Shown here: positions 6,631 to 28,700 of the stretch, one piece after another
Position numbering within the stretch: position 1 is the stretch's first letter
How the letters are laid out: each line of letters begins with the position of its first letter
Origin: a virus
DNA: 32,333 nucleotides
Reading direction: 5' to 3' (one strand)
UHGV virus genome: UHGV-0045956
The notes under the pieces: model-generated
What the model saw: the letters and a program-made list of their open reading frames with translations, nothing else
The model's database searches: none
Told to the model about the DNA's origin: nothing
Made by a program: the position numbers and the translations under genes

Positions 6631-6752
6631 AAAAAAAAAAAAAAAAAAAAAAGGGGCCGCCCCCCCCCCCCCCCCCAGTCCTGATTTGTACACACTCATT
6701 TTCCGACTGACAATTTACATAGCCAAAACGCTATCAAATCTGACAGTCTGCT

Positions 6753-6781
6753 TTGAGCGAATAGCAGACATTCATTAATAT
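6753..6781 (+). promoter_or_regulatory. candidate sigma70 promoter TTGAGC-N17-TAATAT for the cargo gene
   Basis: -35-like 6753..6758, 17-nt spacer, -10-like 6776..6781, ~70 nt upstream of ATG 6854; overlapped by dyad GTCTGC-N12-GCAGAC (6746..6769). Confidence 0.3.
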
Positions 6782-6853
6782 GTTTGTTAGGCTAACTTTA
6801 TATGATAATTACTGAAATTGACCTTAGTTTGAGAATTGCATTAGGGGAATAAA

Positions 6854-7960
6854 ATGGATGTCATTGAACTTAGAGAGTTACTTATCAAGTATAATGGTCT
6901 TCAAAATACTGACGAAGTCTATACGTTTTATTATGATGAAACGAATAATATTCGAAAACTATATTTAAAAGATTCTGGTTTTAATGTTGTAAAGGCGGAT
7001 AATTTCATCCTTGCAGGAATACTACACAAAGGGTTAAGCACTGACAGCGATTATTCAACCCTATTTAAAAAACTTAATCTTCAAAAAAGTGCCCGCGAGT
7101 TAAAACTCAGTCATATTGCCAAGGGTAGTTTTTTGGACATGCTTAAATCTGATAAGCTTTTAATTATTCTAAACTGGCTTATTGAAAACAATTTCCACAT
7201 CCATTATTTTAATCTTAATATCACATACTGGTCTATTATTGACATTATTGATTCTATTATTGGAGAGCTACATAATCCTTTTTATATCATGAACCACATG
7301 TCACTTAAGAGCGATTTTTATGAGCTTGCCAATAGCAATTCCGATGTTTTCCTGAATGCTCTACATAAATTTAACTACCCCGATATTCCAGAAGAAAAAG
7401 TTTATGAGTTTTGCCTCTGGCTTATCGATTTTACATGCATGCACAGTTGTATGCTACCAGATTTTCGAGCACACGCACTCAAAAATTTGGTTAAAGAATC
7501 TCTAAAAATCGAAGAACTACCGTTCATATCGGGATTTCATGGTCGAAAACTGATCGATAGCTTTATGGTATTTTATTTAAGAAACTTGTATCTATTTAAA
7601 AATTCCATTCACATATTTGATGAAGAAAATAGCATTCAAGATGAAGTTAAAAACTTCCCGTTAACTGAAAATGGCATACCAATACAGAATCATGAATTCG
7701 TTAAATCCCACAACTCAGAGGCTGTCCAACTATCTGATGTTATCGCAGGCTTTTTGGGTAAGTATTTTTCTTACTTAAAAGATGTAAATGACGAGCAATT
7801 AGCGATTGATAAGTCAGCCTTAACGAGCAAGCAATTTAAGACCCTTTCTGCGTTAAAACACATTATTGATATTTCTGATGATGTTAGCAGAGGATTTTTT
7901 AATGAAGTTAGCAGCGAGGGAGAGCGACGAAGAAACAACCGTTTTTTACATGGTGTATAA
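6854..7960 (+). CDS. hypothetical protein, AT-rich cargo gene at the Z/fun position (candidate defence/exclusion gene)
   Basis: 368-aa ORF, AGGGGA ribosome-binding site, strongly AT-rich, opposite strand to the flanking late genes; no transmembrane segment; DE near N-terminus (YYDETNN) and Q-x-x-D near C-terminus (VQLSDVIAG). Confidence 0.75.
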   Translation: MDVIELRELLIKYNGLQNTDEVYTFYYDETNNIRKLYLKDSGFNVVKADNFILAGILHKGLSTDSDYSTLFKKLNLQKSARELKLSHIAKGSFLDMLKSDKLLIILNWLIENNFHIHYFNLNITYWSIIDIIDSIIGELHNPFYIMNHMSLKSDFYELANSNSDVFLNALHKFNYPDIPEEKVYEFCLWLIDFTCMHSCMLPDFRAHALKNLVKESLKIEELPFISGFHGRKLIDSFMVFYLRNLYLFKNSIHIFDEENSIQDEVKNFPLTENGIPIQNHEFVKSHNSEAVQLSDVIAGFLGKYFSYLKDVNDEQLAIDKSALTSKQFKTLSALKHIIDISDDVSRGFFNEVSSEGERRRNNRFLHGV

Positions 7961-8590: not shown

Positions 8591-10801
8591 TTATACCTGC
8601 GCCACGTTGTACCATGTCCCGTTAATGTATTTCTGAACCGGTCTGTAATATACGCCACCAATGTTATCGGCAGAGTTTGAGCCTGTATCCTGAACAATAA
8701 TGCCGGTATATACGCACCCGGACGGTGCCTGATGTGTCCATGTCATGCCATTGTTCGCAGGTTTGTATGTGGCCGCACCACCAAGCCGGAGATCCCTGAC
8801 ATAGCGGGAGTCAAAATTGCTGAAATTTGATGGTATCACCTGCCCGGTAACCCGTAGTGCATCAGACTTAAGCGTCATCAGATCTTTTGTTGTGCTGCCA
8901 GACCTGATGCGCCATTTAAAATATTCATTGCCATTATCACCAGTTTCAAACCACATGTATGAGTCAGAATCAGCATCTGAATCATTTTTAAATCCAATTT
9001 TCGCCCAGTCAGTGTTTCTTTCCCAAATCAGGAAGGCATCATTGATAAATTTTATGCTGCCTGACATGCTTCCGCCTGATAATGCCAGAGCAAGAATATC
9101 CGCAGGTGTTGGCTTTCGTGATGTGGTATAAAACTCTGACCAGTCAGCCTCAAATCCATACCCATCACGTGCCGACCTGTAAAAAATCCCCCTGTTTTTA
9201 TAATCCACAAGAAACTGCATTGCCGGACAACTTCCCTCACCCGTGTAAAAATGCAGCACCATTTTTGATGCTCCGCCATCCTGTGCACAATAAGCACCAC
9301 TATCCCAGTTCCATCCTACCGCTTTATTATTTGCAACCGTATTTCCTGTTTTCCCTAATGCAAAAGCCGGTTGCTTATTTTTCGTATTGTAGTCGCGTCG
9401 CCAGCCCGGCGCATAATCAGCTCCGTGATTGATATACGTGAATTGCGCACTGGTGGTACCACCACCGCTTGATGTACTCGGAGTGGTCACACGAATGGTC
9501 ATTGCAGCTTTAACGCCCATAACCTCAATCACGCAACCTGCAAGATGAATAGTCCCACAGTCAGTATCGGTAATAATTTTGTTATTACCGTATGACCAGG
9601 AACACTTGCACATCCAGTAGGGATGATTAAAGGCTCCCTGAGACTCTAGCCAGTCAATAAACTGAGCGGTTGTCCAGTTTCCGGCTTCAGTGCTCAAAGC
9701 ACCGCTATAAGCACGACAGGCACCGATATTTTTCGTGAAAGTATCCTTTCCCGGAATATCCGCACCGTTCTGATCTTTCTGAAGACGTTTTTCAGCATTG
9801 TCATAGGCAGACTTCACCGCTTTTGGTGTTGCAGCCAGCGTTTCAGAATCGCTGTTGATGGCGCTACTCAGCTGAACAAGGCCTTTTCGTACTGTGGTGG
9901 CGTCCTGTGCAGTGTATTTCCCGTTAGCAAGGTCATATGCTGCCTTTACCGCCTTTGGCGTTGCCGCAAGCGTTTCAGAATCACTGTTGGTGGCGCTACT
10001 GAGCTGAACAAGGCCTTTTCGCGTTGTGGTGGCGTCCTGTGCAGTGTATTTCCCGTTAGCAAGGTCATATGCTGCCTTTACCGCTTTCGGCGTTGCGGCG
10101 AGCGTTTCAGACGTGCTGTTGGTGGCACTACTGAGCTGGACAAGGCCTTTTCGCGCTATGGTGGCGTCCTGTGCGGTATATTTCCCGTTAGCAAGGTCAT
10201 ACGCGGCCTTTACCGCTTTCGGCGTTGCGGCCAGTGTTTCAGACGTGCTGTTGGTCGCACTGCTTAACTGAGTAAAACCTTTTGCGGTCAGCGAGGCGTC
10301 AGGGTGACGTCGTGACTGTTCATGTTCTGCAATTTTGTCATCAACGTAATCCTGCGTTGCTATCACCGTTGTGGTGTCAATGGTCAGCTCCACTGAGGCC
10401 ACACTGCTGACGATGATGACCATGCGGCAGGTCTGCGAACGCCCTGAGCCTTCGGCAAGGGCTGGCTTATAACTTTCGGCCATGTTCGCCACGGCAATTA
10501 GCGTTCCCGCATCATCGTACAGGCCAAGTTCACGCATCCAGAAACCGCCCACCTCCGGCGGAATAACCAGCTCTGCGATAATATAATTACTGTTTCGTTT
10601 GTCCTGGCTGATTTTGTTCAGCGCATGTCGCCAGACTTCGTGGATAAGCCCGGTCTGTCCGGCATCCGGGACAGGCAATTTACCACCGCCATCCCCGACG
10701 GCCATCGTGGTAATGTTGACCTTCCGCCCTCCCGGTGCGGTTGCCGCTGCCAGCTTTGCTGCACCGGCAGTGGTGATAACGGTTCTGAATTTTGTGCTCA
10801 T
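8591..10801 (-). CDS. H: tail fibre protein gpH (mosaic)
   Basis: 736 aa; N-terminus MSTKFRTVITTAGAAKLAAATAP… and C-terminus …KYINGTWYNVAQV typical of P2 H; internal 44-aa repeats; divergent Cys-containing middle section. Confidence 0.9.
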   Translation of the reverse strand: MSTKFRTVITTAGAAKLAAATAPGGRKVNITTMAVGDGGGKLPVPDAGQTGLIHEVWRHALNKISQDKRNSNYIIAELVIPPEVGGFWMRELGLYDDAGTLIAVANMAESYKPALAEGSGRSQTCRMVIIVSSVASVELTIDTTTVIATQDYVDDKIAEHEQSRRHPDASLTAKGFTQLSSATNSTSETLAATPKAVKAAYDLANGKYTAQDATIARKGLVQLSSATNSTSETLAATPKAVKAAYDLANGKYTAQDATTTRKGLVQLSSATNSDSETLAATPKAVKAAYDLANGKYTAQDATTVRKGLVQLSSAINSDSETLAATPKAVKSAYDNAEKRLQKDQNGADIPGKDTFTKNIGACRAYSGALSTEAGNWTTAQFIDWLESQGAFNHPYWMCKCSWSYGNNKIITDTDCGTIHLAGCVIEVMGVKAAMTIRVTTPSTSSGGGTTSAQFTYINHGADYAPGWRRDYNTKNKQPAFALGKTGNTVANNKAVGWNWDSGAYCAQDGGASKMVLHFYTGEGSCPAMQFLVDYKNRGIFYRSARDGYGFEADWSEFYTTSRKPTPADILALALSGGSMSGSIKFINDAFLIWERNTDWAKIGFKNDSDADSDSYMWFETGDNGNEYFKWRIRSGSTTKDLMTLKSDALRVTGQVIPSNFSNFDSRYVRDLRLGGAATYKPANNGMTWTHQAPSGCVYTGIIVQDTGSNSADNIGGVYYRPVQKYINGTWYNVAQV
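9795..10290. repeat. in-frame tandem repeats, 132-bp period, ~3.5 copies, inside H
   Basis: gtggtggcgtcctgtg… recurs at 9893, 10025 and 10157; encodes repeated LSSATNSTSETLAATPKAVKAAYDLANGKYTAQDAT. Confidence 0.85.
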
Positions 10802-10811
10802 TATTCCTCAC

Positions 10812-11342
10812 TTATCCGGGGTAAACCGTAATTACATCGCCGTCGTAAGCCACACCACCGGCGAACAGGTAGCCGGGAATATCCCGGGTAATGTTCAGGC
10901 CAATAAGATGACGGCTTGCAGGTTTGGCATCAGCAATAAGCCGTTCCATTTCCTGATACATTGCCTCTGTGATGCCGCTTTCCAGTACGCCAATATCAAG
11001 CCGGAAGGTGCCTGGCGGGTCACTGGTTTCCCACCACTCCGTCACGTTGATGAGATAGCCCAGCGGCTCCACCACACGCCGGATTGCACCTATAGTGCCT
11101 TTATGACAGTGGATGAAATAGGCATCGCGAATAACGGCGCGTTTTGTCGCTTCCGGCCACTTTTCATCCCACCTGTCGACCGAAAACGCCCACGCCAGCC
11201 ACGGCAGTAGATTTGCCGGACAGGTGTCCGGGTTCCACAGCTCACGAATACTGACCGGCGTTTTTTCAATTTCCGCACAGGCTTTTGCGGCGGCGACTTC
11301 AAGCGGTGATGAGCCGGTCGGCAGCAGGCGCGAATCACTCAT
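10812..11342 (-). CDS. I: baseplate assembly protein gpI
   Basis: 176 aa as in P2 I; overlaps J stop. Confidence 0.85.
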   Translation of the reverse strand: MSDSRLLPTGSSPLEVAAAKACAEIEKTPVSIRELWNPDTCPANLLPWLAWAFSVDRWDEKWPEATKRAVIRDAYFIHCHKGTIGAIRRVVEPLGYLINVTEWWETSDPPGTFRLDIGVLESGITEAMYQEMERLIADAKPASRHLIGLNITRDIPGYLFAGGVAYDGDVITVYPG

Positions 11343-12243
11343 CCGAGCCTCCGGTCACGACGCGGTATTCGGTACAGAAAGACGCCTGCGTACTGTTGAG
11401 CACGATGTCGGCCAGCGGTGCAGCCAGTTCGACACGCTGCACGCCTTCCACATGCAAAGCGGCATAAATGGCAGATAGTCGGATGTCGCGCCCCAGCCGG
11501 TGCTGTGCCGTGATATACGCTTCCAGTTTTTTCACGGCGGCAGCGCGAATGGGTTCGCTTTCGGGGCCAGGGTAAAGGTAAAGCGTGGCATTTATCTGGT
11601 ATTCAACGATGGCGGCAGACTGCACGGTCACACGGTCGGCCACCGGTCTGACGTCCTCGCCATTCAGGGCGTTGCGCACCACAGCCAGCAGGTCTTCAGA
11701 TGCCACACCGTTATTTTCACGTGACAGCACAGAGATGGTGACACAGGCCGGAGACGGACTGGTGACAGAGATATCCGCGACACGCCCGTCGGCACTGCGA
11801 CCATGATACTGATAGGCTCCCACCGACCCGGCGACGCTTAAGCCTTCAAACGCCTGCTGAATACGCAGACGATAATCGGTGTCAGACTCCATCACTGCCG
11901 GTGTCGGCGGGATGGTCGAATCATCTGCCGGGGTGATAGTCAGGCGCGTGGTGTTGTAATTGGCACCAATCACATCAAGGTCATTACCGGCGGCACAGGC
12001 CAGCATCACCGCCCGCGCAGCCTCATTCACACGCTGACGCCAGATAAGCTCACGATAAGCATTTTCCTCCAGCAGTTTGACGAGAGGCTCAGATTCCAGC
12101 GTCAGGGTACGGGCGACCGCCTCCTGCTGGTCTTCCGGGTAAAGGGAAATCAGTGTCGCCTTGCGTTCAGCGAGAATGGTTTCAAAGTCCAGCTCCTCGA
12201 CCACATCCGGTGCGGGTAGCTGGTTCAGGTCGATAATCGGCAT
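11335..12243 (-). CDS. J: baseplate protein gpJ
   Basis: 302 aa as in P2 J. Confidence 0.85.
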   Translation of the reverse strand: MPIIDLNQLPAPDVVEELDFETILAERKATLISLYPEDQQEAVARTLTLESEPLVKLLEENAYRELIWRQRVNEAARAVMLACAAGNDLDVIGANYNTTRLTITPADDSTIPPTPAVMESDTDYRLRIQQAFEGLSVAGSVGAYQYHGRSADGRVADISVTSPSPACVTISVLSRENNGVASEDLLAVVRNALNGEDVRPVADRVTVQSAAIVEYQINATLYLYPGPESEPIRAAAVKKLEAYITAQHRLGRDIRLSAIYAALHVEGVQRVELAAPLADIVLNSTQASFCTEYRVVTGGSDE

Positions 12244-12247
12244 GGTT

Positions 12248-12595
12248 TCAACTCACAGGGATGGTTAACGAAAGTGGCTGGCCGGTGTCGTTGTGCTGGC
12301 CGGTTAACGTGACCGTCATTCGCCCGTCAAAGCTGCGCGCCGTGGTGACGGATGACAGGGTGACGCGGGGTTCCCATTTCAGCACCGCCATGTAACAGGC
12401 GACCTTAATCTGCAACTCAAGCGCCGGGGTCTGCGGCTGGTCAATCATTGACGCCAGCAACGAGCCGTAATCACGACGCATCACCCGTGAGCCGACCGGT
12501 GTACGCAGGATATCGCCGATACTCTGGCTGATATGCTCAAGGTCAGTGACAGTCAGGCCATCACTGCGATTCATTCCGAGATAACGCGCTGTCAT
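12248..12595 (-). CDS. W: baseplate protein gpW
   Basis: 115 aa as in P2 W. Confidence 0.85.
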   Translation of the reverse strand: MTARYLGMNRSDGLTVTDLEHISQSIGDILRTPVGSRVMRRDYGSLLASMIDQPQTPALELQIKVACYMAVLKWEPRVTLSSVTTARSFDGRMTVTLTGQHNDTGQPLSLTIPVS

Positions 12596-13746: not shown

Positions 13747-14206
13747 CCCACTTGCTCACCAGTTCGCCATTGATATAAAGCTCCACCGGGCGGGTGACCG
13801 GCTCCGGCGGCGGAGGTTCCGGGATATTCTTCACATGCAGTGCGCCGTCCACCTCACTGACCAGCGTGCGCTCGGTCAGCATCAGGCTGATGCTGATATC
13901 AAAGCTGCTGTCATTGTTGATGTCTGCATAAAACGTGAAGCCCTTTTTCTGACCTGCGTCGGTGGTCATGATGTCGGGCTGATTTACCCGCAGCCACGCC
14001 AGCACCGGCACGATGAGCAGGTCAAAATCACCGGTAAAGTCGGTCACAATGACATTGAGCGTGTAACGCTTTTCGAATGACAGCGACGCAGCCAGTGTGG
14101 AGGCAATACTCCCGTTATCCACGAATATCCGCAGCATATCGGGGTTAGTTTTCAGCACCGTGACGGCATCAGTCAGCGCCCTGCGCAGGCTGTCGGGTTT
14201 GAGCAT
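13739..14206 (-). CDS. R: tail completion protein gpR
   Basis: 155 aa as in P2 R. Confidence 0.8.
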   Translation of the reverse strand: MLKPDSLRRALTDAVTVLKTNPDMLRIFVDNGSIASTLAASLSFEKRYTLNVIVTDFTGDFDLLIVPVLAWLRVNQPDIMTTDAGQKKGFTFYADINNDSSFDISISLMLTERTLVSEVDGALHVKNIPEPPPPEPVTRPVELYINGELVSKWDE

Positions 14207-14459
14207 CGTTTTCGTCCTGACAGTGTTTAATCATTTTTACCTGGCTGGCACAGCGTGCCAGCGCGTTCTCAAGCTGCCGGATATCGGCACTTAAATCGCC
14301 GTTCGTCTGCGGGTCACTGCCCGGCATCGGGCAAAGGCTCACTTTCGGGCAGGCGTTGGGGACAATCACTGGCGTCAGTGCAGGCCGGACGCTGGTGCAA
14401 CCGGCGCACAGCATCAGGCAGGTCAGCGCCATACCAGCGGCGAAAATCTTCGTTTTCAT
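14169..14459 (-). CDS. lysC: outer-membrane spanin lipoprotein (LysC / Rz1-like), embedded out of frame in lysB
   Basis: Internal ATG at 14459 gives MKTKIFAAGMALTCLMLCAGC… (signal peptide plus lipobox Cys), 96 aa, inside the lysB 3' region. Confidence 0.6.
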   Translation of the reverse strand: MKTKIFAAGMALTCLMLCAGCTSVRPALTPVIVPNACPKVSLCPMPGSDPQTNGDLSADIRQLENALARCASQVKMIKHCQDENDAQTRQPAQGAD

Positions 14460-14739
14460 TGAGTAACCTCGTGATGGTTTTCTCGCGCTGTGCTTCACGC
14501 TTCGCGGCGTTCTCCAGCTCCTGACGCAGTGCCACCTGCGCCAGCTCGTTTTTGTCTGCCCTGGTGAGCGCAACATGAAGCTGATTTTTCAGCATGGTGA
14601 TGGTCGTCTGCTGCCCGCTGGCGACGTTGTTCGCCCTGTCCAGCGAGGCGCGCAGGCTGGCATTTTTGTGTTTCACCAGAAACAGACCGGCCACCGCCAG
14701 TGATAACAACACAACCAGCACAGTCATCAGCCTTGACAT
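14314..14739 (-). CDS. lysB: inner-membrane spanin LysB (Rz-like)
   Basis: 141 aa, N-terminal transmembrane helix then coiled-coil; P2 LysB length. Confidence 0.75.
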   Translation of the reverse strand: MSRLMTVLVVLLSLAVAGLFLVKHKNASLRASLDRANNVASGQQTTITMLKNQLHVALTRADKNELAQVALRQELENAAKREAQREKTITRLLNENEDFRRWYGADLPDAVRRLHQRPACTDASDCPQRLPESEPLPDAGQ

Positions 14740-15166: not shown

Positions 15167-15664
15167 TTAAGCCGGTACGCCGCCGGCGGTACGCCAGACG
15201 GTGACCAGTTTTTCCAGTGAATGCTCACGCTGACCGTAACCGGCACCCGGCAGGGACGCCCAGATATTGCGACAGCGTGAAATGGCGCGCTCAATGCGTC
15301 CCGCCCGGATGTCATCCAGTGCACCACGTTCGCGGATCAACTGAATGGCGAGCCTGTCCTGTGACAACGGACTGAAATCCGGCAGGGCAAGCTGTTTGCG
15401 GTAGTGCGGCCAGAACAGGTAAAGCTGCTGATAGCGACCGGAGGCCGTGGATTTTTCACCGCGACGGTTAAACACCTTCGCCGGTCGGCCATGCGCGAAC
15501 GGGTGGTCACTGTAGTCGGTGAATATTTCCGGCTTCCCGTCCAGTCCGGTGACTATCACGTCATAGCCCCGGTTTTTCGTCAGCGGATGATTCGCCGTCC
15601 CTTCGGACACTGCCAGCATGTCGAGAAAGGCGGCGATATTCTGATGCGTGTTAATTACCGGCAT
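15167..15664 (-). CDS. K: endolysin gpK
   Basis: 165 aa as in P2 K; follows the holin. Confidence 0.85.
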   Translation of the reverse strand: MPVINTHQNIAAFLDMLAVSEGTANHPLTKNRGYDVIVTGLDGKPEIFTDYSDHPFAHGRPAKVFNRRGEKSTASGRYQQLYLFWPHYRKQLALPDFSPLSQDRLAIQLIRERGALDDIRAGRIERAISRCRNIWASLPGAGYGQREHSLEKLVTVWRTAGGVPA

Positions 15665-15945
15665 TACTGTTTCCCCCTGCCCTTAAAGCGGCGCTGAATG
15701 GCAATCTCAATCACCTGATAACCGGCGATACCCAGCATGGAGCCGATGCCGCACACCGCAGGCAGTGACAGGTCAGGAAACTGCACCAGAACAACACCGG
15801 CAACCATCGAGACAAAACCACCGAGCAACATGCGCCCGATAAACAGACGCGGGGTGATGGGTTCACCACCGGCAAGCACCTTGCCGACAACAATCAGCAC
15901 CCCAATCATGAAAAGCGACAGGACGCTTTTTTCTTCTGCTGTCAT
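15664..15945 (-). CDS. Y: holin gpY
   Basis: 93 aa with hydrophobic helices and charged C-terminus; P2 Y length. Confidence 0.8.
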   Translation of the reverse strand: MTAEEKSVLSLFMIGVLIVVGKVLAGGEPITPRLFIGRMLLGGFVSMVAGVVLVQFPDLSLPAVCGIGSMLGIAGYQVIEIAIQRRFKGRGKQ

Positions 15946-19667: not shown

Positions 19668-21440
19668 ATGACCATCACCACAGACACCACTCTTTTACAC
19701 GACCCGCGTCGTCAGGCGGCGCTGCTGTACTGGCAGGGATTTTCCGTGCCGCAGATTGCCGCCATGTTGCAGATGAAACGCCCGACAGTGCAGAGCTGGA
19801 AACAGCGCGACGGCTGGGACAGCGTTGCCCCCATCAGCCGTGTCGAAATGAGTCTGGAAGCGCGGCTGACCCAGCTCATCATCAAACCGCAGAAAACCGG
19901 CGGTGACTTCAAGGAAATTGACCTGCTCGGACGCCAGATTGAACGACTGGCACGGGTAAACCGCTACAGCCAGACCGGCAACGAGGCAGACCTTAATCCG
20001 AACGTCGCTAACCGCAACAAAGGCGGGCGGCGCAAACCGAAAAAGAATTTTTTCAGTGACGAGGCCATCGAAAAGCTGGAGCAGATTTTCTTTGAGCAGT
20101 CTTTCGAATATCAGTTGCACTGGTATCGCGCCGGGCTTGAGCACCGCATCCGCGATATCCTGAAATCCCGCCAGATTGGCGCGACGTTTTATTTTTCCCG
20201 CGAGGCGCTGCTGCGCGCCCTGAAAACCGGTCATAACCAGATTTTTCTGTCGGCCAGTAAAACGCAGGCGTATGTGTTCCGCGAATACATCATCGCCTTT
20301 GCCCGGCTGGTTGACGTTGACCTGACCGGTGACCCGATTGTCCTGGGCAATAACGGTGCAAAACTGATTTTTCTCGGCACCAACTCCAACACCGCACAGA
20401 GCCATAACGGCGACCTGTACGTCGATGAGATTTTCTGGATCCCGAATTTTCAGGTACTGCGTAAGGTGGCATCAGGTATGGCCTCACAGAGTCACCTGCG
20501 CTCGACCTATTTCTCCACCCCGTCCACGCTGGCGCACGACGCCTACCCGTTCTGGTCGGGTGAACTGTTCAACCGGGGACGCGCCAGCGCCGCCGAACGC
20601 GTGGAAATCGACATCAGTCATAACGCCCTTGCCGGAGGTCTTCTCTGTGCGGACGGCCAGTGGCGGCAGATTGTCACCATTGAGGACGCCCTGAAAGGTG
20701 GCTGCACGCTGTTCGACATTGAGCAGCTCAAACGTGAAAACAGCGCCGACGATTTTAAAAACCTGTTCATGTGTGAATTTGTTGACGACAAGGCGTCGGT
20801 ATTCCCGTTCGAGGAGCTGCAACGCTGCATGGTCGACACGCTGGAAGAATGGGAAGACTATGCGCCGTTTGCCGCGAATCCGTTCGGCTCCCGCCCGGTA
20901 TGGATTGGTTACGACCCGTCACACCGTGGCGACAGCGCCGGATGCGTGGTGCTGGCACCGCCGGTGGTGGCCGGTGGCAAATTCAGAATACTTGAGCGTC
21001 ACCAGTGGAAAGGCATGGACTTTGCCACTCAGGCGGAATCCATCCGCAAACTCACCGAAAAATACAACGTCGAATACATCGGTATTGATGCCACCGGCCT
21101 CGGTGTCGGCGTGTTCCAGCTCGTGCGCTCGTTCTATCCCGCCGCGCGCGATATCCGCTACACGCCGGAAATGAAAACCGCAATGGTGCTCAAGGCAAAA
21201 GACGTTATTCGCCGTGGCTGTCTGGAATATGACGTCAGCGCCACCGACATCACCAGCTCGTTTATGGCTATCCGCAAGACCATGACCAGCAGCGGACGCA
21301 GCGCCACCTATGAGGCCAGCCGCAGCGAGGAAGCCAGCCACGCCGACCTCGCCTGGGCGACCATGCACGCCCTGTTAAATGAGCCACTCACTGCCGGTAT
21401 CAGCACCCCGCTGACATCCACCATTCTGGAGTTTTACTGA
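19668..21440 (+). CDS. P: terminase large subunit gpP
   Basis: Trimmed to ATG 19668 with GAGG ribosome-binding site (MTITTDTTLLHDP…), 590 aa as in P2 P; divergent from O. Confidence 0.9.
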   Translation: MTITTDTTLLHDPRRQAALLYWQGFSVPQIAAMLQMKRPTVQSWKQRDGWDSVAPISRVEMSLEARLTQLIIKPQKTGGDFKEIDLLGRQIERLARVNRYSQTGNEADLNPNVANRNKGGRRKPKKNFFSDEAIEKLEQIFFEQSFEYQLHWYRAGLEHRIRDILKSRQIGATFYFSREALLRALKTGHNQIFLSASKTQAYVFREYIIAFARLVDVDLTGDPIVLGNNGAKLIFLGTNSNTAQSHNGDLYVDEIFWIPNFQVLRKVASGMASQSHLRSTYFSTPSTLAHDAYPFWSGELFNRGRASAAERVEIDISHNALAGGLLCADGQWRQIVTIEDALKGGCTLFDIEQLKRENSADDFKNLFMCEFVDDKASVFPFEELQRCMVDTLEEWEDYAPFAANPFGSRPVWIGYDPSHRGDSAGCVVLAPPVVAGGKFRILERHQWKGMDFATQAESIRKLTEKYNVEYIGIDATGLGVGVFQLVRSFYPAARDIRYTPEMKTAMVLKAKDVIRRGCLEYDVSATDITSSFMAIRKTMTSSGRSATYEASRSEEASHADLAWATMHALLNEPLTAGISTPLTSTILEFY

Positions 21441-22474
21441 TGAGCAAGAAAAAAGGGAAAACACCGCGACCAGCGGCAAAAACAATGACCGCCAGCGCCC
21501 CGAAAATGGAGGCATTCACCTTTGGCGAGCCGGTGCCGGTACTCGACCGCCGTGACATTCTGGATTACGTCGAATGCATCAGTAACGGCAGATGGTATGA
21601 GCCGCCGGTCAGCTTTACCGGTCTGGCAAAAAGTCTGCGTGCTGCCGTGCATCACAGCTCACCGATTTACGTCAAACGCAATATTCTGGCCTCGACATTT
21701 ATCCCGCACCCGTGGCTGTCCCAGCAGGATTTCAGCCGCTTTGTACTGGATTTTCTGGTGTTCGGTAATGCGTTTCTGGAAAAGCGTTACAGCACCACCG
21801 GTAAGGTCATCAGACTGGAAACCTCACCGGCAAAATATACCCGCCGTGGCGTGGAGGAGGATGTTTACTGGTGGGTGCCGTCCTTCAACGAGCCGACAGC
21901 CTTCACGCCCGGCTCCGTGTTTCACCTGCTGGAGCCCGATATTAATCAGGAGCTGTACGGTCTGCCGGAATATCTCAGCGCCCTTAACTCTGCCTGGCTG
22001 AATGAGTCGGCCACGCTGTTCCGCCGCAAGTATTACGAAAACGGCGCACATGCCGGATACATCATGTACGTCACCGATGCCGTGCAGGATCGCAACGATA
22101 TCGAAATGCTTCGCGAAAACATGGTGAAGTCGAAAGGCCGCAACAACTTTAAAAACCTGTTTCTCTATGCCCCGCAGGGGAAAGCCGACGGCATTAAAAT
22201 TATCCCGCTCAGTGAAGTGGCGACGAAGGACGATTTTTTTAATATCAAAAAAGCCAGCGCCGCTGACCTGCTGGATGCGCACCGCATCCCCTTTCAGTTG
22301 ATGGGCGGCAAGCCGGAGAACGTCGGGTCGCTAGGTGATATTGAGAAAGTGGCAAAGGTCTTTGTCCGCAATGAGCTTATCCCGCTACAGGACAGGATCC
22401 GCGAGATAAACGGCTGGCTCGGTCAGGAGGTCATCCGCTTTAAAAACTACTCACTGGACACTGACAACGGCTGA
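21440..22474 (+). CDS. Q: portal protein gpQ
   Basis: 344 aa as in P2 Q; start overlaps P stop (ATGA). Confidence 0.9.
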   Translation: MSKKKGKTPRPAAKTMTASAPKMEAFTFGEPVPVLDRRDILDYVECISNGRWYEPPVSFTGLAKSLRAAVHHSSPIYVKRNILASTFIPHPWLSQQDFSRFVLDFLVFGNAFLEKRYSTTGKVIRLETSPAKYTRRGVEEDVYWWVPSFNEPTAFTPGSVFHLLEPDINQELYGLPEYLSALNSAWLNESATLFRRKYYENGAHAGYIMYVTDAVQDRNDIEMLRENMVKSKGRNNFKNLFLYAPQGKADGIKIIPLSEVATKDDFFNIKKASAADLLDAHRIPFQLMGGKPENVGSLGDIEKVAKVFVRNELIPLQDRIREINGWLGQEVIRFKNYSLDTDNG

Positions 22475-22478
22475 ACAT

Positions 22479-22501
22479 CGCCGCCTGCGGGCGGCTTTTT
22501 T
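22479..22501 (+). terminator. rho-independent terminator after Q
   Basis: gccgcc-tgcg-ggcggc stem-loop followed by TTTTTT directly after the Q stop. Confidence 0.6.
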
Positions 22502-22666
22502 ACACCCCGTCATCACGGCCTCACACGCTCACCACCGCACAAAACACCCCGCAGACACACCAACGCCCCGGCAGGCCGACTAAATGCCATCACGACGCGC
22601 TCAGACGCAAAAAAACTGTCACTACCACGCCGTTACGTTGGCCCCATAAAAAGTGGCCCACTCCAG

Positions 22667-23668
22667 TTATAATAATTTGTCCAGCCTAGCTGAAACAATA
22701 CCTAGAACAACTGTTGAAACTATATTTATCACCACTCTTAAAATACTCTTCTTTCGCTTCTTACTATATTCATCATACAACCTCTCATCACCCTTATTTA
22801 ATACAATGTACGATGCTGGAGTATAACCATCAATTAATCTCTCTAGGCCTTCACCTAAATGCTCCGCTAACAATGGGATAATAGAAAACGCACCAAGAAA
22901 GAGCATTAAAAATTTTACTAACCTTTCTTTATCACCAATATCAATATATTCACCAACATTGTACAGTGCATAACTTAAAATCAATATAGAAAAAGAAAAC
23001 CGCATAATCAGTGGAATTAAATACGATATCCTTTGAGCTTGCTGTATCAATGGTATTTTGTTTGTAACTCTTTGACATCCTTCAACCCATTCTTTAAATG
23101 CTTCGATAAAACCTCTAGCCACTACATAATCAGCATATTCAACAACTATTTCTGCTGAACTGGTGAGCATGAATGCAACAAAACGCCCCCTAATGAAAGG
23201 TGGTGCATCTTCTTCCATTTCTTTCTGCATAGCAATTCTTGATGCTAATTTAACAGTAACTTCATAGTGGTTAGGTAATGATGCCCCTGTCGATAAAATT
23301 GCAAAGTTATATTTTAAAATTACACTAATTGTTGGACTACTTCCCGCACTACTCGACATTGCAAACTTATCAAAAGAGGTAAACTGTTCCTTTCTATCTT
23401 TTGAATGTAAAATAGTTACCGTTTCATTTTTCGATATAATATTATGAACATCACACAATTGATTTATTTTTTGATGAACGCTTCTTATCTCATCGATATT
23501 TATAAGTAAATTCTCAGAGGTTCTCTGCCTTATTGTTTCTGTTGTTCCCGTTATATGTTGATAAATTTGCTGATAAATACGAATGCTAGTATTAATATCC
23601 CGAGAAGCAGGTAACCCACTATTAACCCCATTATTTTTTTCATTTGACTCATCAATTATAATACTCAT
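22667..23668 (-). CDS. hypothetical membrane protein, AT-rich cargo between cos and Q
   Basis: 333-aa ORF; ~200-aa soluble N-terminal part then three predicted transmembrane helices; strongly AT-rich versus backbone. Confidence 0.7.
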   Translation of the reverse strand: MSIIIDESNEKNNGVNSGLPASRDINTSIRIYQQIYQHITGTTETIRQRTSENLLINIDEIRSVHQKINQLCDVHNIISKNETVTILHSKDRKEQFTSFDKFAMSSSAGSSPTISVILKYNFAILSTGASLPNHYEVTVKLASRIAMQKEMEEDAPPFIRGRFVAFMLTSSAEIVVEYADYVVARGFIEAFKEWVEGCQRVTNKIPLIQQAQRISYLIPLIMRFSFSILILSYALYNVGEYIDIGDKERLVKFLMLFLGAFSIIPLLAEHLGEGLERLIDGYTPASYIVLNKGDERLYDEYSKKRKKSILRVVINIVSTVVLGIVSARLDKLL

Positions 23669-23912
23669 TTTATTTCCTATAAAAACTTAACCAGCAAATT
23701 AAACAAAAAGAACACAAGGTTATTATTTAGCGTGCAACAACACGATTGCACAACCAAATGCCACGTGTACGAATCTAACCATTCTCTTATATTAAATCAA
23801 GTCAATACAACCTAATAGACACATTTTTTATCGCAGTTATACACTTGGTTAACAATATGCGGATAGTTACTCAAATCAAATTACATATATGACAAAATGA
23901 ACAATTGCGCGC

Positions 23913-23931
23913 AGTGCTTTCCCCGCCTCGC
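23913..23931 (-). other. cos: cos site, 19-nt cohesive end GGCGAGGCGGGGAAAGCAC
   Basis: + strand gtgctttccccgcctcgcc is the reverse complement of the P2 cohesive-end sequence as I recall it; GC-rich island between AT-rich genes. Confidence 0.7.
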
Positions 23932-24036
23932 CCGCCCGCTTCATGGGGCGGTTTTAATGTAGGTGCATGAACACTCCAAGAGCGCGCCAGCATTGACGAT
24001 AACTGACAATAAAAACGGCCTCTGACATATGCACAT

Positions 24037-24954
24037 TCATTCACAATCATGCATATTAAAGAACGGGTATGGATAGCGTCGTAAGATCTCATCTTCACTG
24101 TACCCCAAATAATCAGACATGAGTTTAATCGAAGGTGGCGTTACAGGTTTCATAAGCAGAGGAAAACGTTCGTGCAAATCATTGAATTTAAGAATCCCTG
24201 AATCTTCTTGCATTACTCTTTTGTCAAACAGCGATTCAGCATACAATGGCAACTCTTTGAGCAACAGATTAATATCAAGCAACAAAACATCTATCATAAT
24301 CATTATTTGCTCAGTAATATCAATGTAATAAGCCGCCTTATTACTACCTATAGCATTAACAATATCATCATTTTTAAAACGCATCGTCGGCAAAGGTGAA
24401 CCTGTTGATTCAATAATCATTCCTCTATAGGTGTCATCAAAATCATTCCTAACATTTAATGCAGCCAATAGGCTGTTAAACCTTCTTGCTATATCACTAA
24501 CAACAAAAGCATCCCCCCAGTTAGTAGTCTTTGCTGTCTCTCTATTATTCTCTACTCCCTTTTGACTCAATATACAGGCCAACTCACTTAAATCTGATGA
24601 TAGGGGAGCACCAGAAAAAACCACGACAGGAAAAGCTAAAGCCCTCTCGATAGGATTTTCACTTATACTTACCCCACCATAATAATTCCCTTTAATTTGC
24701 AACAACGTTGTCATTGCAGAAAAGTAGTCATAAATACATTTATTTACAACGCTTACCTTTCTTCTTTGTGCTTTAAGGTACTCCTGCCGATAAAACAACC
24801 TAGTTGCAATAAAGTAACTCAGCACAGAAGAGATAATTGGTAATACTACAGGCAGCACATAATCTTTTATGACATTAGTATTATTAACGCCTTTAATTGC
24901 ATCAATAATATCCTCAACCTGAAGCTGCCCTATTATATAGCTCGTATAATCCAT
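24037..24954 (-). CDS. hypothetical membrane-anchored protein, AT-rich cargo at the tin/old position
   Basis: 305-aa ORF; single N-terminal transmembrane helix (YVLPVVLPIISSVLSYFIATRLF); ATG 2 nt after the upstream lipoprotein stop. Confidence 0.7.
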   Translation of the reverse strand: MDYTSYIIGQLQVEDIIDAIKGVNNTNVIKDYVLPVVLPIISSVLSYFIATRLFYRQEYLKAQRRKVSVVNKCIYDYFSAMTTLLQIKGNYYGGVSISENPIERALAFPVVVFSGAPLSSDLSELACILSQKGVENNRETAKTTNWGDAFVVSDIARRFNSLLAALNVRNDFDDTYRGMIIESTGSPLPTMRFKNDDIVNAIGSNKAAYYIDITEQIMIMIDVLLLDINLLLKELPLYAESLFDKRVMQEDSGILKFNDLHERFPLLMKPVTPPSIKLMSDYLGYSEDEILRRYPYPFFNMHDCE

Positions 24955-24956
24955 TA

Positions 24957-25163
24957 TCAGAAAGCCGTTATTGTTCTATTACAACGTTCAGTAGCAACTT
25001 TCACAGCATCACGCCCATCACTTAATTTAGGGTAAGAACCAATCTCTATAAAATATTGGACACCTCTTTCAATACAACTCTCAACTTCTTTTTTATTACT
25101 CTCATTACAACCAACCAGCAACGCCCCAAAAAAAGCCATAACACAAATCAGTTTTCTTTTCAT
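24957..25163 (-). CDS. small lipoprotein (candidate superinfection-exclusion factor)
   Basis: ATG 25163 with AAGGTG ribosome-binding site; MKRKLICVMAFFGALLVGC signal peptide and lipobox; ~50-aa mature part with Cys residues; AT-rich. Confidence 0.6.
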   Translation of the reverse strand: MKRKLICVMAFFGALLVGCNESNKKEVESCIERGVQYFIEIGSYPKLSDGRDAVKVATERCNRTITAF

Positions 25164-25301
25164 TTTAAACACCTTAACAAACACGATACAAAAACGTATA
25201 TTTATATTATCTTTCAGAATAAGTAAATCCCAGCTATTCATCAACTCTCGGTGTCAATCTGATGGGTATCTAACGCCTCGCTAAGCTCGTTGTTCAACCC
25301 C

Positions 25302-25428
25302 NNNNNNNNNNNNNNNNNNNNNNNNNNNNNNNNNNNNNNNNNNNNNNNNNNNNNNNNNNNNNNNNNNNNNNNNNNNNNNNNNNNNNNNNNNNNNNNNNNN
25401 NNNNNNNNNNNNNNNNNNNNNNNNNNNN
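25302..25428. other. assembly gap (127 N) followed by ~31-nt poly-G
   Basis: N run, then gggggggggtgggggggggggggggggggggg at 25429..25460. Confidence 0.95.
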
Positions 25429-25464
25429 GGGGGGGGGTGGGGGGGGGGGGGGGGGGGGGGTTTA

Positions 25465-25710
25465 CTACGGCCTGCGTGGTGGTTGTTTTGGCATGTTAGC
25501 TGGCCGAGATGTCTCAATTTTCTGTCTACTGATATCGTTAAACCGTCTGTAATTATCCCGGACTATTTCGGCACACCCGACCAGCTCATCGGGCGTCAGA
25601 TTTTCGTTGACCATAATCCGCTGTAAACGCTGAACAATAGCCATCAGCTTGATATTTTTAGTTTTATGGTGCGGTATCTCGCCTGGTATTCTGTGCATTA
25701 TCCAAGCCAC
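25465..25710 (-). CDS. hypothetical protein (3' end next to gap and poly-G, boundary unreliable)
   Basis: 81-aa ORF downstream of the ASCH-like gene; C-terminus abuts the homopolymer and gap. Confidence 0.35.
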   Translation of the reverse strand: MAWIMHRIPGEIPHHKTKNIKLMAIVQRLQRIMVNENLTPDELVGCAEIVRDNYRRFNDISRQKIETSRPANMPKQPPRRP

Positions 25711-26153
25711 CCGTTTTGCTGTGCACGCTCCATCTGTTCATCTGAATAGTTCCATGCTCCATCCGTGGCAACCATTGCCCCGCCAGACATCCCCGTCTCT
25801 GGTTCATACATAACAGCAAGGCCGAGCTGATGCATAATTTCATGATTAATTCTGAATACCAGACCACGCTCACTAAGTTCTTTCCAGTTCACAATCTCAT
25901 ATGCGCCTGTATTAAGCAGCTCAATACTTAGCAAGACATAATCTTCCAGCCAGTCTGACAGGTCAGTAACATCTGTTATCCGGGCTTCAACCTTTCGCCC
26001 CGTATACACACCCTGCACCCATTCATGCAAAATCAACGTGTCCCCGCGCTCATAATTACGGTCATTTTTCCGAAACTCTGCGCGTTTCTTTCCTTCCAGC
26101 ACAAGGTCGAAATATTTTGCGTGCAGCTTTACCTCGTGAATTTTAGCCATCAT
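25698..26153 (-). CDS. ASCH/DUF3850-like protein with C-terminal HExxH motif
   Basis: MAKIHEVKLHAKYFDLVLEGKKRAEFRKNDRNYERGDTLILHEW resembles the ASCH-like DUF3850 N-terminus; HEIMH near C-terminus; ATGATGA overlap with the A stop. Confidence 0.6.
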   Translation of the reverse strand: MMAKIHEVKLHAKYFDLVLEGKKRAEFRKNDRNYERGDTLILHEWVQGVYTGRKVEARITDVTDLSDWLEDYVLLSIELLNTGAYEIVNWKELSERGLVFRINHEIMHQLGLAVMYEPETGMSGGAMVATDGAWNYSDEQMERAQQNGWLG

Positions 26154-28435
26154 GTCCACTCCATTACTGTTGAGAATCCCGGCCACTCATCAGCGACCGA
26201 ATACGTGAATTTTTTCCCGTCATAATTTACGGTTGCCCCACGCGCCAGCGCCTCAAGCTCCCATCGCTGCGGCCTGATACCATTCTGAGCAAGGTCAACG
26301 CGGATACGGGTAATTTGCATTCTTTCCGACCGGGTCAGTCTGGCCGATGGTGCAATTTCATGTGGTTTTAACGGGCTTCCGTTTCTTTGCTGACGGTTTG
26401 GCGTTCTCAGGTCGTGTTTTAATGCGCCCCTGAGCGCCCTCACGACCTCCGGGTCACTCCATTCGATAACACCGTCATTAACCAGATTAAGCACTGCTGC
26501 GGCGTGCTCAGAAGGTGTGGGAGCCGGTAACGAAGTATCACCACCGGTGAGTTTTCCACAGTTATTGACAGGACTCCGAGGCGCGGCGATGCCGCTTTTT
26601 AAAGTCAAAGGCTCAACGACCGGAACTTTCGGCACAATGCGCCAGTCCGTCGTTCTGGTGATATGAATATGACGCGCGCCGAGATGCGGCGCGTAAATGC
26701 CGACCACTCTCTCGACTTCTTCCTCGTACTCGTTAACTTCATCCGACGGGCTACGGGCGACTCTGACAGTCTGGCAATCGCGCGGAACATTTGCCCCACC
26801 CTGCGCACTGATATACAACGCAAAATCGCCACTGTCTGCGGCAGCGCGTGCAGCCTCGACGCGTTCGTCAAACTCATCAGCAATGCTGACGCCGCGAGGC
26901 AATTTGCGTAGTTCACGGTAAGCCCCCATTGTCGGCAGACCAACCGTTTTAAATTGCGGGATGCGCCACGTTGACGCCCATGCAGTAACAGCCGCGGCAG
27001 TATCTTTCAGAGGTCTGCCGGTATCGTTATCGAGCTGACCATCCAGTGCATAGCCGTCGATATTTTTTGAAATGTATTTCGCGATATACCCCGCAGCACC
27101 GCCCCGGTTAAGGTGTTTCGCCTGAAAACGGTTTCGCTCGGCTCCTCTTTCGTCGCCATCCTCTTTGAGCGCGTAGCGACGCATGGTTTCGATAATCTGG
27201 TTACGCTGACGTGGATTACAAAAAAGCATCATATGCCAGTGCGGCGTTCCGTCGTGGTGTGGCTCGACGACACGCAAACCGTAGACCTGTAAATCATTAT
27301 CCTTGAATGCCGTGCGCATCAGGCTCCAGATGCGGCAGAGATAACGCTGCGCATCCTTTGGATTAAATGCCTCATCGTTCCAGCCGTGATTTAGCTGGAC
27401 GGTTTTACTTTCGCCTTTTCCGACCTGACGTGTCGGGTGATACTTTGACGGCGCGGTCAGCGTGATAAACATCCCCACATCACCCTCTGCGGCGGCGTAA
27501 CGCTCAATACCGGCGATGGTGTTCATCAGCTCCATCCGGCGAATTTCTGGATTAGAAATACTGCCCATCACCTTACTGATAAGGTCGATGCGCTCGCCGG
27601 TTTCCCTGTTTTCAAGGTCACACGATTTAAGAAATTCCAGATTTGCCTGGCGGCGCGCACGCACATCACGAATGGCGTGTTTACTGGCATAAGGAGAACG
27701 GTCTTTATTGACCTCCCCGACAGCTATCAGTAACGCTTCATGCCAGCGCATACGCTGGCCTTTAAGCTGATGAGTCCACCACTCATCGTTAAACAGACGG
27801 GCAATGGCAGAATATGCCTGCCTCGTGGTCATCTGCCCTTTACGGTATTTTTTCCAGTAGAGAGGGGAAATATTGAAAGCACGTGCAGCGCCAGCAACAT
27901 GACCATAGAGGTGAGCCTGCGCCTCATCCGTAAACAGCGATTCTTTTTCGCCATGCGCATCCACCCAGGCATCGCTGAGTTCCTCATACATCATGAAAAG
28001 CTGCGATGAGATACGGGCAGCAAACTTTTTCAGCTCCTTGTCATTCATTCCCGGCAGGCGCGCATAGTGGTCACGCTCTGCCAGAAACAGCAACGACGCG
28101 TCGGTGTTCATTTCATGGCGCTGATTCACACGCTCAATGCGCGGCCATAAACGACGCTGAAAAGTGGATGTGAGGAAATAAAACCCGTGTACCGGGCTTT
28201 TATTGCGCCGGATGTAGTCATAGCGTGAAGTAAACAGCGAGCGCAAAAAGTAAGGCAGGCGGTTAATCGTGGATAAAACACCTTGCACCTGACGCATCTC
28301 GTCACGTGTAAGGGGTCTTTCGCGCCCGACGGCCTCGCGTGGCGCGTTCCATGCATAAGCACCGGTAAACGCCTTACCGGTGCCTGCAGCAAATGCTGAA
28401 GGAGGGACAAAACGCCCGGAGGCTTTAACGGCCAT
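26150..28435 (-). CDS. A: replication initiation endonuclease gpA
   Basis: Trimmed to ATG 28435 (MAVKASGRF…), 761 aa as in P2 A; contains the conserved …HHDGTPHWHMMLF… and …AGYIAKYISKNIDG… regions I associate with rolling-circle initiators. Confidence 0.88.
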   Translation of the reverse strand: MAVKASGRFVPPSAFAAGTGKAFTGAYAWNAPREAVGRERPLTRDEMRQVQGVLSTINRLPYFLRSLFTSRYDYIRRNKSPVHGFYFLTSTFQRRLWPRIERVNQRHEMNTDASLLFLAERDHYARLPGMNDKELKKFAARISSQLFMMYEELSDAWVDAHGEKESLFTDEAQAHLYGHVAGAARAFNISPLYWKKYRKGQMTTRQAYSAIARLFNDEWWTHQLKGQRMRWHEALLIAVGEVNKDRSPYASKHAIRDVRARRQANLEFLKSCDLENRETGERIDLISKVMGSISNPEIRRMELMNTIAGIERYAAAEGDVGMFITLTAPSKYHPTRQVGKGESKTVQLNHGWNDEAFNPKDAQRYLCRIWSLMRTAFKDNDLQVYGLRVVEPHHDGTPHWHMMLFCNPRQRNQIIETMRRYALKEDGDERGAERNRFQAKHLNRGGAAGYIAKYISKNIDGYALDGQLDNDTGRPLKDTAAAVTAWASTWRIPQFKTVGLPTMGAYRELRKLPRGVSIADEFDERVEAARAAADSGDFALYISAQGGANVPRDCQTVRVARSPSDEVNEYEEEVERVVGIYAPHLGARHIHITRTTDWRIVPKVPVVEPLTLKSGIAAPRSPVNNCGKLTGGDTSLPAPTPSEHAAAVLNLVNDGVIEWSDPEVVRALRGALKHDLRTPNRQQRNGSPLKPHEIAPSARLTRSERMQITRIRVDLAQNGIRPQRWELEALARGATVNYDGKKFTYSVADEWPGFSTVMEWT

Positions 28436-28700
28436 ATGAGCCAAAAGCCTCTGAACAACGCCTGCTGAGTTGCTCAACCTGCGCGTTTAAATCAGCAAAA
28501 GACTTTGCGCTTCCGGTCAGAATATCGTGATGCATCAGGCCGGAAACGAGCTGGCTTAATTTCGGATAATAACCAACCACCGCCAGCCATTCCTGACCGG
28601 CGTTTTTACCGCTTTCCGCTCTCTTTTTCTCGTGGAGAATAAACTGAAAGCTGTCACTGGTAACGACATAACGTTCGCCAATTTCAATACGAATACTCAT
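28425..28700 (-). CDS. hypothetical early protein (P2 orf83 position)
   Basis: 91-aa ORF immediately upstream of A. Confidence 0.5.
   Translation of the reverse strand: MSIRIEIGERYVVTSDSFQFILHEKKRAESGKNAGQEWLAVVGYYPKLSQLVSGLMHHDILTGSAKSFADLNAQVEQLSRRCSEAFGSYGR

Follow-up and report, generated by a model that had tools for sequence, protein, structure and literature searches.

What does a P2-like phage carry at the place where P2 has tin and old, and what might this cargo do? We addressed this question in virus genome UHGV-0045956, a stretch of 32,333 nucleotides (the window) that represents a P2-like (Peduovirus) prophage in the reverse complement of the standard P2 map. Between the cos sequence and the genes on the gpA side, the window holds two minus-strand open reading frames, one for a predicted lipoprotein of 68 amino acids (24957–25163) and one for a membrane protein of 305 amino acids (24037–24954). 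They occupy the tin/old position, as a preliminary description of this DNA had proposed. The gpA–cos interval is a known hotspot, in which P2 has old/tin and many validated systems have also been found (Rousset 2022, PMC9122126; PMC13586616). The best reading of our results is that the two genes form a self-contained accessory cassette, a 'moron', which encodes a membrane module. An anti-phage function of this module at the inner membrane, either a block of genome entry or an abortive response, is a candidate for which we consider the case evenly balanced.

The cassette shares with old/tin the insertion site, the orientation to gpA and cos, the AT-richness and the variability among P2-like phages. 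Its G+C content is 35.9%, compared with 53–54% for Q and gpA, in agreement with the earlier description of both genes as AT-rich. Old and Tin are phage-exclusion genes expressed in the lysogen (PMC9122126). Unlike them, the pair encodes predicted envelope proteins, and neither Pfam nor PADLOC revealed similarity to an ABC ATPase, a TOPRIM domain or Tin, which bears out the earlier statement that the pair is unrelated to Old.

A rare gene pair kept together

Of 5426 complete E. coli genomes, 15 contained the pair, in each case on the chromosome, whereas its conserved flanks matched 2152. Among 50,697 GenBank phage records only P2_AC1 (AC1) carried it, and a search of a species-level genome set with close alignment returned only E. 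albertii. The arrangement in 14 of the 15 E. coli genomes was that of AC1, with the pair beside a TIR protein and two small transmembrane proteins. These 14 genomes were exactly those holding the TIR system, and their loci were at least 99% identical, so they represent one lineage and one observation. No TIR gene accompanied the pair in the window, in MS 16-3 of E. coli, in Salmonella Potsdam, in other assemblies or in two diverged lineages (L003 and L007/L012), and purifying selection on the pair persisted where the TIR gene was absent.

The diverged lineages allowed the two genes to be compared over a longer distance. In the P2-like locus L003 the large protein was 57% and the lipoprotein 74% identical to those of the window, and a gene for a 433-amino-acid protein was also present; in L007, L008, L012 and L016, from E. 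coli and E. albertii, the values were 52–53% and 68–70%. The three lineages have diverged to 52–57% in the large protein and 63–74% in the lipoprotein, the pair was kept in all of them, and the two genes diverged in parallel. Wherever the large protein was at least 52% identical (15 of 15 examined loci), the lipoprotein gene stood immediately upstream on the same strand. At the depth of the diverged lineages the ratio of non-synonymous to synonymous substitution rates (dN/dS) was 0.14–0.32 for the lipoprotein and 0.12–0.24 for the large protein, with a range of 0.05–0.24 over the homologues of the latter. The co-retention and the low dN/dS indicate that the pair is a real, selected and co-inherited module and not a P2 core function. 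The dN/dS values, together with about 200 related clusters, also argue that a 918-nucleotide open reading frame in DNA of 36% G+C is not a chance product. Furthermore, the pair was found in at least four hotspot arrangements, namely alone, with the TIR system, with the 433-amino-acid gene and with a 333-amino-acid gene across cos, which marks it out as an autonomous module. The 433-amino-acid protein of L003 (1808–3109, after the pair) is hotspot cargo with weak similarity to MauJ (Pfam, E 4e-6) and DzbB (PADLOC, E 2e-4).

The two genes had been described as translationally coupled. In the window they abut without overlap, with 2 nucleotides between the lipoprotein stop and the start of the large gene (TGA-TA-ATG). 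The spacer in L003 and L007 is 33–34 nucleotides long and has its own Shine–Dalgarno sequence, so the tight spacing is a property of the window lineage only.

The boundaries of the cassette were also examined. On the distal side it is bounded by the P2-type cos cohesive-end sequence GTGCTTTCCCCGCCTCGCC (23914–23932), which is also present in the P2 and P4 clones of Rousset 2022 Table S2. On the other side, the cassette upstream region (25164–25297, minus strand) is AT-rich, contains several −10-like hexamers and presumably includes the cassette's own promoter. It is followed by an assembly gap and a poly-G artefact (25298–25460), made up of an N run at 25302–25428 and 32 bases at 25429–25460 that are all G but one T, a typical no-signal sequencing artefact. 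Since there are three N-gaps in the window (4593–4699, 6553–6630 and 25302–25428), it is a scaffolded assembly. The preliminary description had suggested that the last gap might hide more of the locus. This was not the case in E. coli MS 16-3 (NZ_CP146667.1), which is 99.9% identical over 22480–25290 and continuous through the gap; by alignment, the N run and poly-G correspond to about 31 nucleotides that contain no gene and complete a perfect, G+C-rich hairpin of 19 bp (folding energy −46 kcal/mol, z −8.4), with the next gene directly after it. The hairpin stands between the gpA operon and the cassette, and together with the AT-rich leader it makes the cassette look like an independent transcription unit.

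The two encoded proteins

The gene models agreed with the earlier description of a lipoprotein of about 68 residues with lipobox LVGC and a 305-residue protein with one N-terminal transmembrane helix. Translation of the lipoprotein almost certainly begins at the ATG at 25163, with a Shine–Dalgarno sequence, AAGGTG (25170–25175), 6 nucleotides upstream. At the position of this codon the Salmonella allele has GTG and the AC1-type alleles TTG, the homologues in L003 and L007 retain an equivalent Shine–Dalgarno and ATG arrangement, and the PGAP annotation of MS 16-3 calls the 68-residue protein. The longest open reading frame extends to a TTG at 25244 (24957–25244, 95 amino acids); it was rejected on the Shine–Dalgarno sequence, the allele comparison and the PGAP call.

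The N-terminus of the lipoprotein (MKRK-LICVMAFFGAL-LVGC; signal peptide MKRKLICVMAFFGALLVGC) has a charged n-region, a hydrophobic h-region and a lipobox of the form [LVI][ASTVI][GAS]C, as predicted for a substrate of Lgt and LspA. The lipobox is LVGC in the window and LAGC or LSGC in diverged alleles, and the mature protein has 49 residues with two further conserved cysteines, Cys30 and Cys61. The sequence matched PHROG 32041, a family of unknown function, over its full length (residues 1–68, E 2.7e-36). A word-indexed search returned five database clusters, all close relatives, and in the four whose genomic context was seen the gene was always upstream of the large gene; the fifth, P0007, comes from a 1.7-kb contig and was left out. 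The AlphaFold2 model has two helices, 18–41 and 53–66, with a predicted local distance difference test (pLDDT) score above 90 over residues 30–60, and no match to it was found in the PDB by Foldseek. The invariant Cys30 and Cys61 lie one on each model helix, a placement that would be consistent with a disulfide and hence with a periplasmic location. In E. coli, lipoproteins are classically retained in the inner membrane by aspartate at position +2, next to the lipidated cysteine. This residue is asparagine in the window allele and aspartate in the L003 and L007/L012 lineages, in which position +3 is aspartate or asparagine.

We also observed allelic variation within the AC1-type lipoprotein gene. 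A tract in its signal-peptide region (about 1150–1170 in locus L002) is T5G5, which is frameshifted, in AC1, in E. coli M21816 and in two IMG/VR contigs; it is T5G6, which is intact, in strain D7 and, by annotation, in most other genomes. The presence of the G5 tract in M21816 and the two contigs indicates a genuine allele rather than an error in the reads. Either the lipoprotein has been lost repeatedly or the tract is prone to slippage. The 305-amino-acid reading frame was intact in all alleles with the frameshifted lipoprotein.

The 305-residue protein has one real transmembrane segment, at about 32–54. A second candidate at 213–237 was rejected, as acidic residues are conserved within it and the structural model makes it one of the helices of the bundle. 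Only two clusters of the large protein were returned by a word-indexed search, whereas an exhaustive HMMER search exposed a family that comprises about 200 clusters when grouped at 50% identity. Of these clusters, 118 had E < 1e-10, and nearly all members were 280–320 residues long and aligned over their whole length. The window protein matched PHROG 21267, of unknown function, at residues 9–300 (E 8.1e-150; profile positions 1–291 of 291), and so did all 59 of the 59 aligned family members, none of which matched Pfam. The remote-homology search that the preliminary description had called for was thus run, and it yielded this family and no match of known function.

Conservation and modelling gave a consistent view of the protein. 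Conserved residues include K30-D31-Y32 just before the transmembrane helix, an invariant P35, and a small-xxx-small face within the helix (S42; G, S or A at 46; A, G or S at 50). In other proteins such a face marks helix–helix packing, and the conserved motifs suggest that the helix is more than an anchor. Further conserved positions lie in the predicted cytoplasmic part (Q57, N71, L84, K88, Y91, P101, R104, R169-N170, D212, T214, E215 and D222). The AlphaFold2 model, built from the family alignment, is all-alpha (pLDDT 88; predicted template-modelling score, pTM, 0.81), with an amphipathic N-terminal helix (6–23), a 70-residue helix that contains the transmembrane segment (28–97), helices at 149–184 and 204–242, and small C-terminal ones. 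The N-tail of about 30 residues is net acidic. In the 15 residues flanking the transmembrane segment, the family had on average 3.7 lysines and arginines after it and 1.9 before it (5 and 2 in the window protein), and this positive-inside pattern pointed to an inside C-terminus in 50 of 59 members. The protein is therefore predicted, from sequence features, to have its N-terminus outside and its C-terminus inside, with a bundle of about 250 residues in the cytoplasm.

No known function could be assigned from comparison with databases. Scans of both cassette proteins and of the 59 family members against Pfam, NCBIfam and PADLOC gave only noise, a profile search of PDB sequences gave only transmembrane-helix noise, and a Foldseek search of the BFVD viral structures gave nothing below E 0.1. 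As PADLOC does recognize the three TIR-system genes of AC1, its silence on the pair is informative. We found no literature on the protein accessions or the PHROG identifier.

Genomic settings of the family and the cassette

More distant relatives of the large protein, with 21–39% identity, were found without the lipoprotein. The 305-residue protein is therefore the conserved core, and the lipoprotein is an add-on of the enterobacterial P2 clade. Several of these relatives lie at accessory positions of prophages. In a distant P2-like phage (L031) the relative is again in the hotspot between gpA and portal Q, and in another P2-like phage (L010) it is between gpR and gpS, with a YhfG–Fic pair close by, just past gpS. 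Lambda-like prophages carry relatives between gpI and gpJ at five or six loci with 37–55% mutual identity (L021/22, L030, L032, L033/34 and L035; the tail flanks of L032–L034 were recognized by the size and order of their open reading frames only). In a lambdoid prophage (L027/28) the relative is beside the cI repressor, at the position of lambda's rexAB.

Other relatives adjoin genes of known defence families. On an IMG/VR contig (L029) the relative lies just downstream of ApeA, and a NotI endonuclease and a D12 methylase are encoded 3 kb away; on a marine contig (L025/26) it is beside a TIR/ThsB-like protein and a RadC fragment. The order on the IMG/VR contig is ApeA (HEPN), the PHROG 21267 member, the D12 methylase and the NotI-family endonuclease, next to a P22-type coat gene (5388–6794 and 10549–12341), and together these genes make up a compact defence islet.

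Two of the loci contain a further gene near the family member. In L021, from a Citrobacter lambda-like prophage, an unrelated lipoprotein of 113 residues with lipobox ITAGC is encoded between gpK and gpI (6974–7315), one gene away from the 317-residue family member between gpI and gpJ; it could be a coincidence or a second, non-homologous lipoprotein partner. In L019, a contig from an environmental metagenome, the family member falls into a cluster with a protein from Ewingella americana. The gene upstream of it (500–1147) encodes a 215-residue protein of similar layout, in which a short N-tail and a single transmembrane helix are followed by a basic stretch and then helices; this protein may be a paralogue or an alternative partner.

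Around the cassette, the window has the organization of a P2-like phage with additional cargo. Portal Q (21440–22474, plus strand) is followed by a rho-independent terminator (22480–22495) and then by an AT-rich open reading frame of 333 codons (22667–23668, minus strand). The interval between the Q terminator and cos is only about 190 nucleotides in P2, in contrast to the presence of this gene here, a second AT-rich cargo of 32.7% G+C. Its product has a soluble N-terminal domain of about 210 residues followed by three hydrophobic C-terminal helices; it had no match in Pfam, NCBIfam or PADLOC and a PHROG match only at noise level (E 0.23). As the 333-codon gene was found in 10 of 5426 E. coli genomes and 9 of these 10 lacked the lipoprotein pair, it is a separate cargo and another candidate.

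On the gpA side, outside the cassette, lie an open reading frame for 77 or 81 residues (25465–25710, minus strand; PHROG 11386), a gene for a DUF3850/ASCH+DUF7415 protein (25698–26186, minus strand), which is the full-length form of P2 orf91, and gpA itself (26150–28477, minus strand). P2 orf91 (Rousset 2022 Table S2A) is near-identical to the DUF3850/ASCH+DUF7415 protein, with two substitutions, up to '...DYVLL' and then diverges, which places the breakpoint of the P2 old/tin cargo inside this gene. At the other P2 hotspot, the Z/fun position (29–35% G+C), the window carries a 368-residue DUF3800 protein (6854–7960, plus strand) with a match (E 9e-106) to PDC-S51, a candidate defence family in PADLOC, and upstream of it is a small open reading frame (6467–6778) that crosses an N-gap.

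Candidate function and competing explanations

We propose a model in which the 305-residue core would reside in the inner membrane, with its short acidic N-tail in the periplasm and its helical bundle, about 250 residues in size, on the cytoplasmic side. The lipoprotein would be tethered in the periplasm as a helical hairpin stapled by a disulfide. If tethered at the inner membrane, the lipoprotein would be near the N-tail of the large protein and well placed to contact this tail or the membrane-adjacent K-D-Y motif. We infer that the two proteins interact and are expressed in the lysogen, where the prophage-expressed module would block genome entry or trigger a membrane-based abortive response upon infection. 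The large protein may be sufficient for the basic activity, with the lipoprotein tuning it or sensing periplasmic events, since it is predicted to be mostly cytoplasmic, its distant relatives are partnerless, and its own reading frame is undamaged beside frameshifted lipoprotein genes. An anti-phage function is supported mainly by association, namely by the occurrence of relatives at four prophage accessory positions and beside known defence genes.

Some of our results weigh against this anti-phage function. None of the 59 family members matched a PADLOC model. Solo relatives in Hydrogenovibrio and Serratia lie amid housekeeping genes. The context evidence amounts to guilt by association: it covers about 20 loci, and because some of these were taken from a viral collection, the sample is biased towards phage settings. 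A promoter scan of the cassette upstream region did not rise above the shuffle background. Rousset 2022 (PMC9122126) defined the gpA–gpQ hotspot and isolated AC1, the lysogen of which resists lambda and LF82_P8. Plasmid pFD240 ('2TM + 1TM + TIR') encodes only the 126-residue, 185-residue and TIR proteins, leaving the pair outside the clone, and it reproduced the phenotype of the AC1 lysogen (PMC9122126). Thus the TIR genes alone suffice and the pair added nothing visible against the eight-phage panel, a result that counts weakly against a broad activity of the pair. This counter-evidence is itself weakened because the lipoprotein allele of AC1 is frameshifted within the signal peptide (G5 instead of G6).

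The cassette was also compared with known exclusion systems. The preliminary description had pointed to T5 Llp and phi80 Cor and suggested a two-component envelope exclusion or defence module. An exclusion or defence role is plausible from the genomic context, but envelope masking of the Llp/Cor type was not supported. The cassette lipoprotein resembles T5 Llp, phi80/N15 Cor and TP-J34 Ltp in being a small phage lipoprotein with a signal peptide and lipobox. It differs from them in having no Pfam or NCBIfam match, in its helical-hairpin model without a PDB match, and in never occurring without a membrane-protein partner, which is conserved more widely than the lipoprotein itself. The analogy is further weakened by the lack of homology, by aspartate at +2 in two of three lineages and by the predicted inside C-terminus of the large protein: a cytoplasmic bundle, as the positive-inside rule predicts, argues against a receptor mask, and so does a large protein that is partnerless in distant relatives and survives frameshifts of the lipoprotein.

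Other likenesses are to inner-membrane proteins. P22 SieA, HK97 gp15 and T4 Imm are accessory phage proteins of the inner membrane, some encoded in tail operons as are some relatives of the 305-residue protein; however, they have about 60–165 residues and are mostly membrane-embedded, whereas the 305-residue protein has one transmembrane segment and a large predicted cytoplasmic bundle and shares no homology with them. Proteins of the SieA, SieB and Imm type are small and multi-pass. SieA has three transmembrane segments and the motif FxRYPxEAxxFNK (PMC10883804), which is absent from the sequence of the 305-residue protein. The comparison also covered four-helix-bundle sensor domains (4HB_MCP, QseE-like), which hold such a bundle in the periplasm between two transmembrane helices. 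A looser analogy may be drawn with TraT and TraS of F, adjacent genes for a lipoprotein and an inner-membrane protein that lie on a mobile element and jointly exclude related incoming elements at the envelope. TraT is an outer-membrane lipoprotein of about 240 residues and TraS a multi-pass inner-membrane protein. We detected no homology of the pair to either, and TraT is much larger than the 68-residue lipoprotein.

Five other explanations were weighed, which in decreasing order of weight are that the cassette is an envelope conversion factor, that its two genes are independent, that they form an addiction module, that they assist the TIR system and that they are a spanin pair. Envelope-changing factors such as lambda Bor and F TraT are known, and the cassette could be a lysogenic-conversion factor of this kind, unrelated to phages and acting in serum resistance, stress signalling or colonization. 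We regard this as unlikely, because the family recurs beside ApeA, a restriction–modification pair, TIR genes and a cI repressor, has relatives in marine and free-living bacteria without an animal host, and is predicted to be cytoplasmic in the bulk of the 305-residue protein. A comparably low probability attaches to the idea that the two genes are independent neighbours, the lipoprotein being an Llp/Cor-like mask and the 305-residue protein having an unrelated role. The solo distant relatives, the spacing of 2–34 nucleotides and the intact large gene next to a frameshifted lipoprotein gene in AC1-type alleles would all fit this idea; nevertheless, the invariable upstream, same-strand lipoprotein gene in the 15 closer loci, the parallel divergence and the position of the gene in the four lipoprotein clusters seen in context argue for a pair. 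Homology to Llp and Cor is lacking, and aspartate at +2 in two lineages speaks against outer-membrane targeting.

An addiction or toxin–antitoxin-like module, with a membrane toxin and a lipoprotein modulator that stabilize the prophage or hotspot cargo, is suggested by the two-gene operon with a small first gene, by the fact that single-pass membrane proteins with oligomerization motifs can be toxic, and by the relative near the YhfG–Fic pair. We consider it improbable, as the large protein is intact beside a frameshifted lipoprotein and solo in many genomes and hence not obviously toxic alone, and a periplasmic lipoprotein would be an unusual antitoxin for a mostly cytoplasmic domain. The pair could also be an accessory of Rst_2TM_1TM_TIR, for example an extra membrane effector, and the window copy a remnant. 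This system occupies the same hotspot and directly adjoins the pair in AC1 and in all 14 of the complete E. coli genomes that contain it, and it also uses small membrane proteins; in addition, one marine relative neighbours a TIR protein. Furthermore, the 305-residue protein ('1 TM in protein 3') is listed in the TIR arrangement, with 35 loci, in Rousset 2022 Table S5B row 94 (PMC9122126), a row that does not list the lipoprotein, whose sequence was likewise not found in those of the supplementary files that were searched. Against this, the 14 copies are one observation, the three TIR-system genes alone reproduce the defence, and the pair is under purifying selection without TIR in the window, MS 16-3, Salmonella, L003 and L007/L012; PADLOC recognizes the three AC1 genes and nothing in the window cassette, and the window has no TIR gene. 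We therefore hold this explanation to be highly improbable. A spanin-like lysis pair, to which the small lipoprotein and the N-terminally anchored helical protein bear a superficial likeness, is effectively excluded. Spanin genes (Rz/Rz1, P2 LysB/LysC) lie in the lysis cassette with the inner-membrane spanin (i-spanin) gene first or embedding the other, whereas in the pair, located next to cos, it is the lipoprotein gene that comes first; i-spanins have the N-terminus inside, the C-terminus outside and a periplasmic coiled coil, opposite to the predicted orientation of the 305-residue protein, which also has solo relatives. A structural or lysis gene set was likewise discounted, as the phage has its own holin (15664–15945) and LysC (14169–14576) in its lysis cassette and the pair is present in only 15 of 5426 E. 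coli genomes.

Variable and probably defensive cargo in P2 hotspots is of a well-known kind, and the proteins themselves are catalogued but uncharacterized; the family-level picture of PHROG 21267 is new and circumstantial. A broader reading, possible but rather doubtful, is that PHROG 21267 is a widespread and unrecognized single-gene anti-phage family of inner-membrane proteins, whose cytoplasmic helical bundle would act as sensor or effector and which several types of temperate phage would carry at accessory positions. The enterobacterial P2 clade would then have recruited a periplasmic lipoprotein, and the resulting membrane-spanning defence module would couple penetration by the tail or entry of the genome, sensed in the periplasm, to a response in the cytoplasm or the membrane.

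P2 and P4 hotspots are a productive source of new anti-phage systems, and the cassette, although catalogued (Rousset 2022, Table S5B row 94), escapes current defence-finding models. The size of the family, about 200 clusters, its recurrent accessory positions and its confident but unassignable fold make the cassette a clean and cheap target for cloning. Should the pair have no effect on phages, it would provide a useful counter-example to arguing from guilt by association in hotspots. If it proved active, it would define a new membrane-based defence family with an optional lipoprotein partner, and the AC1 locus would hold two systems.

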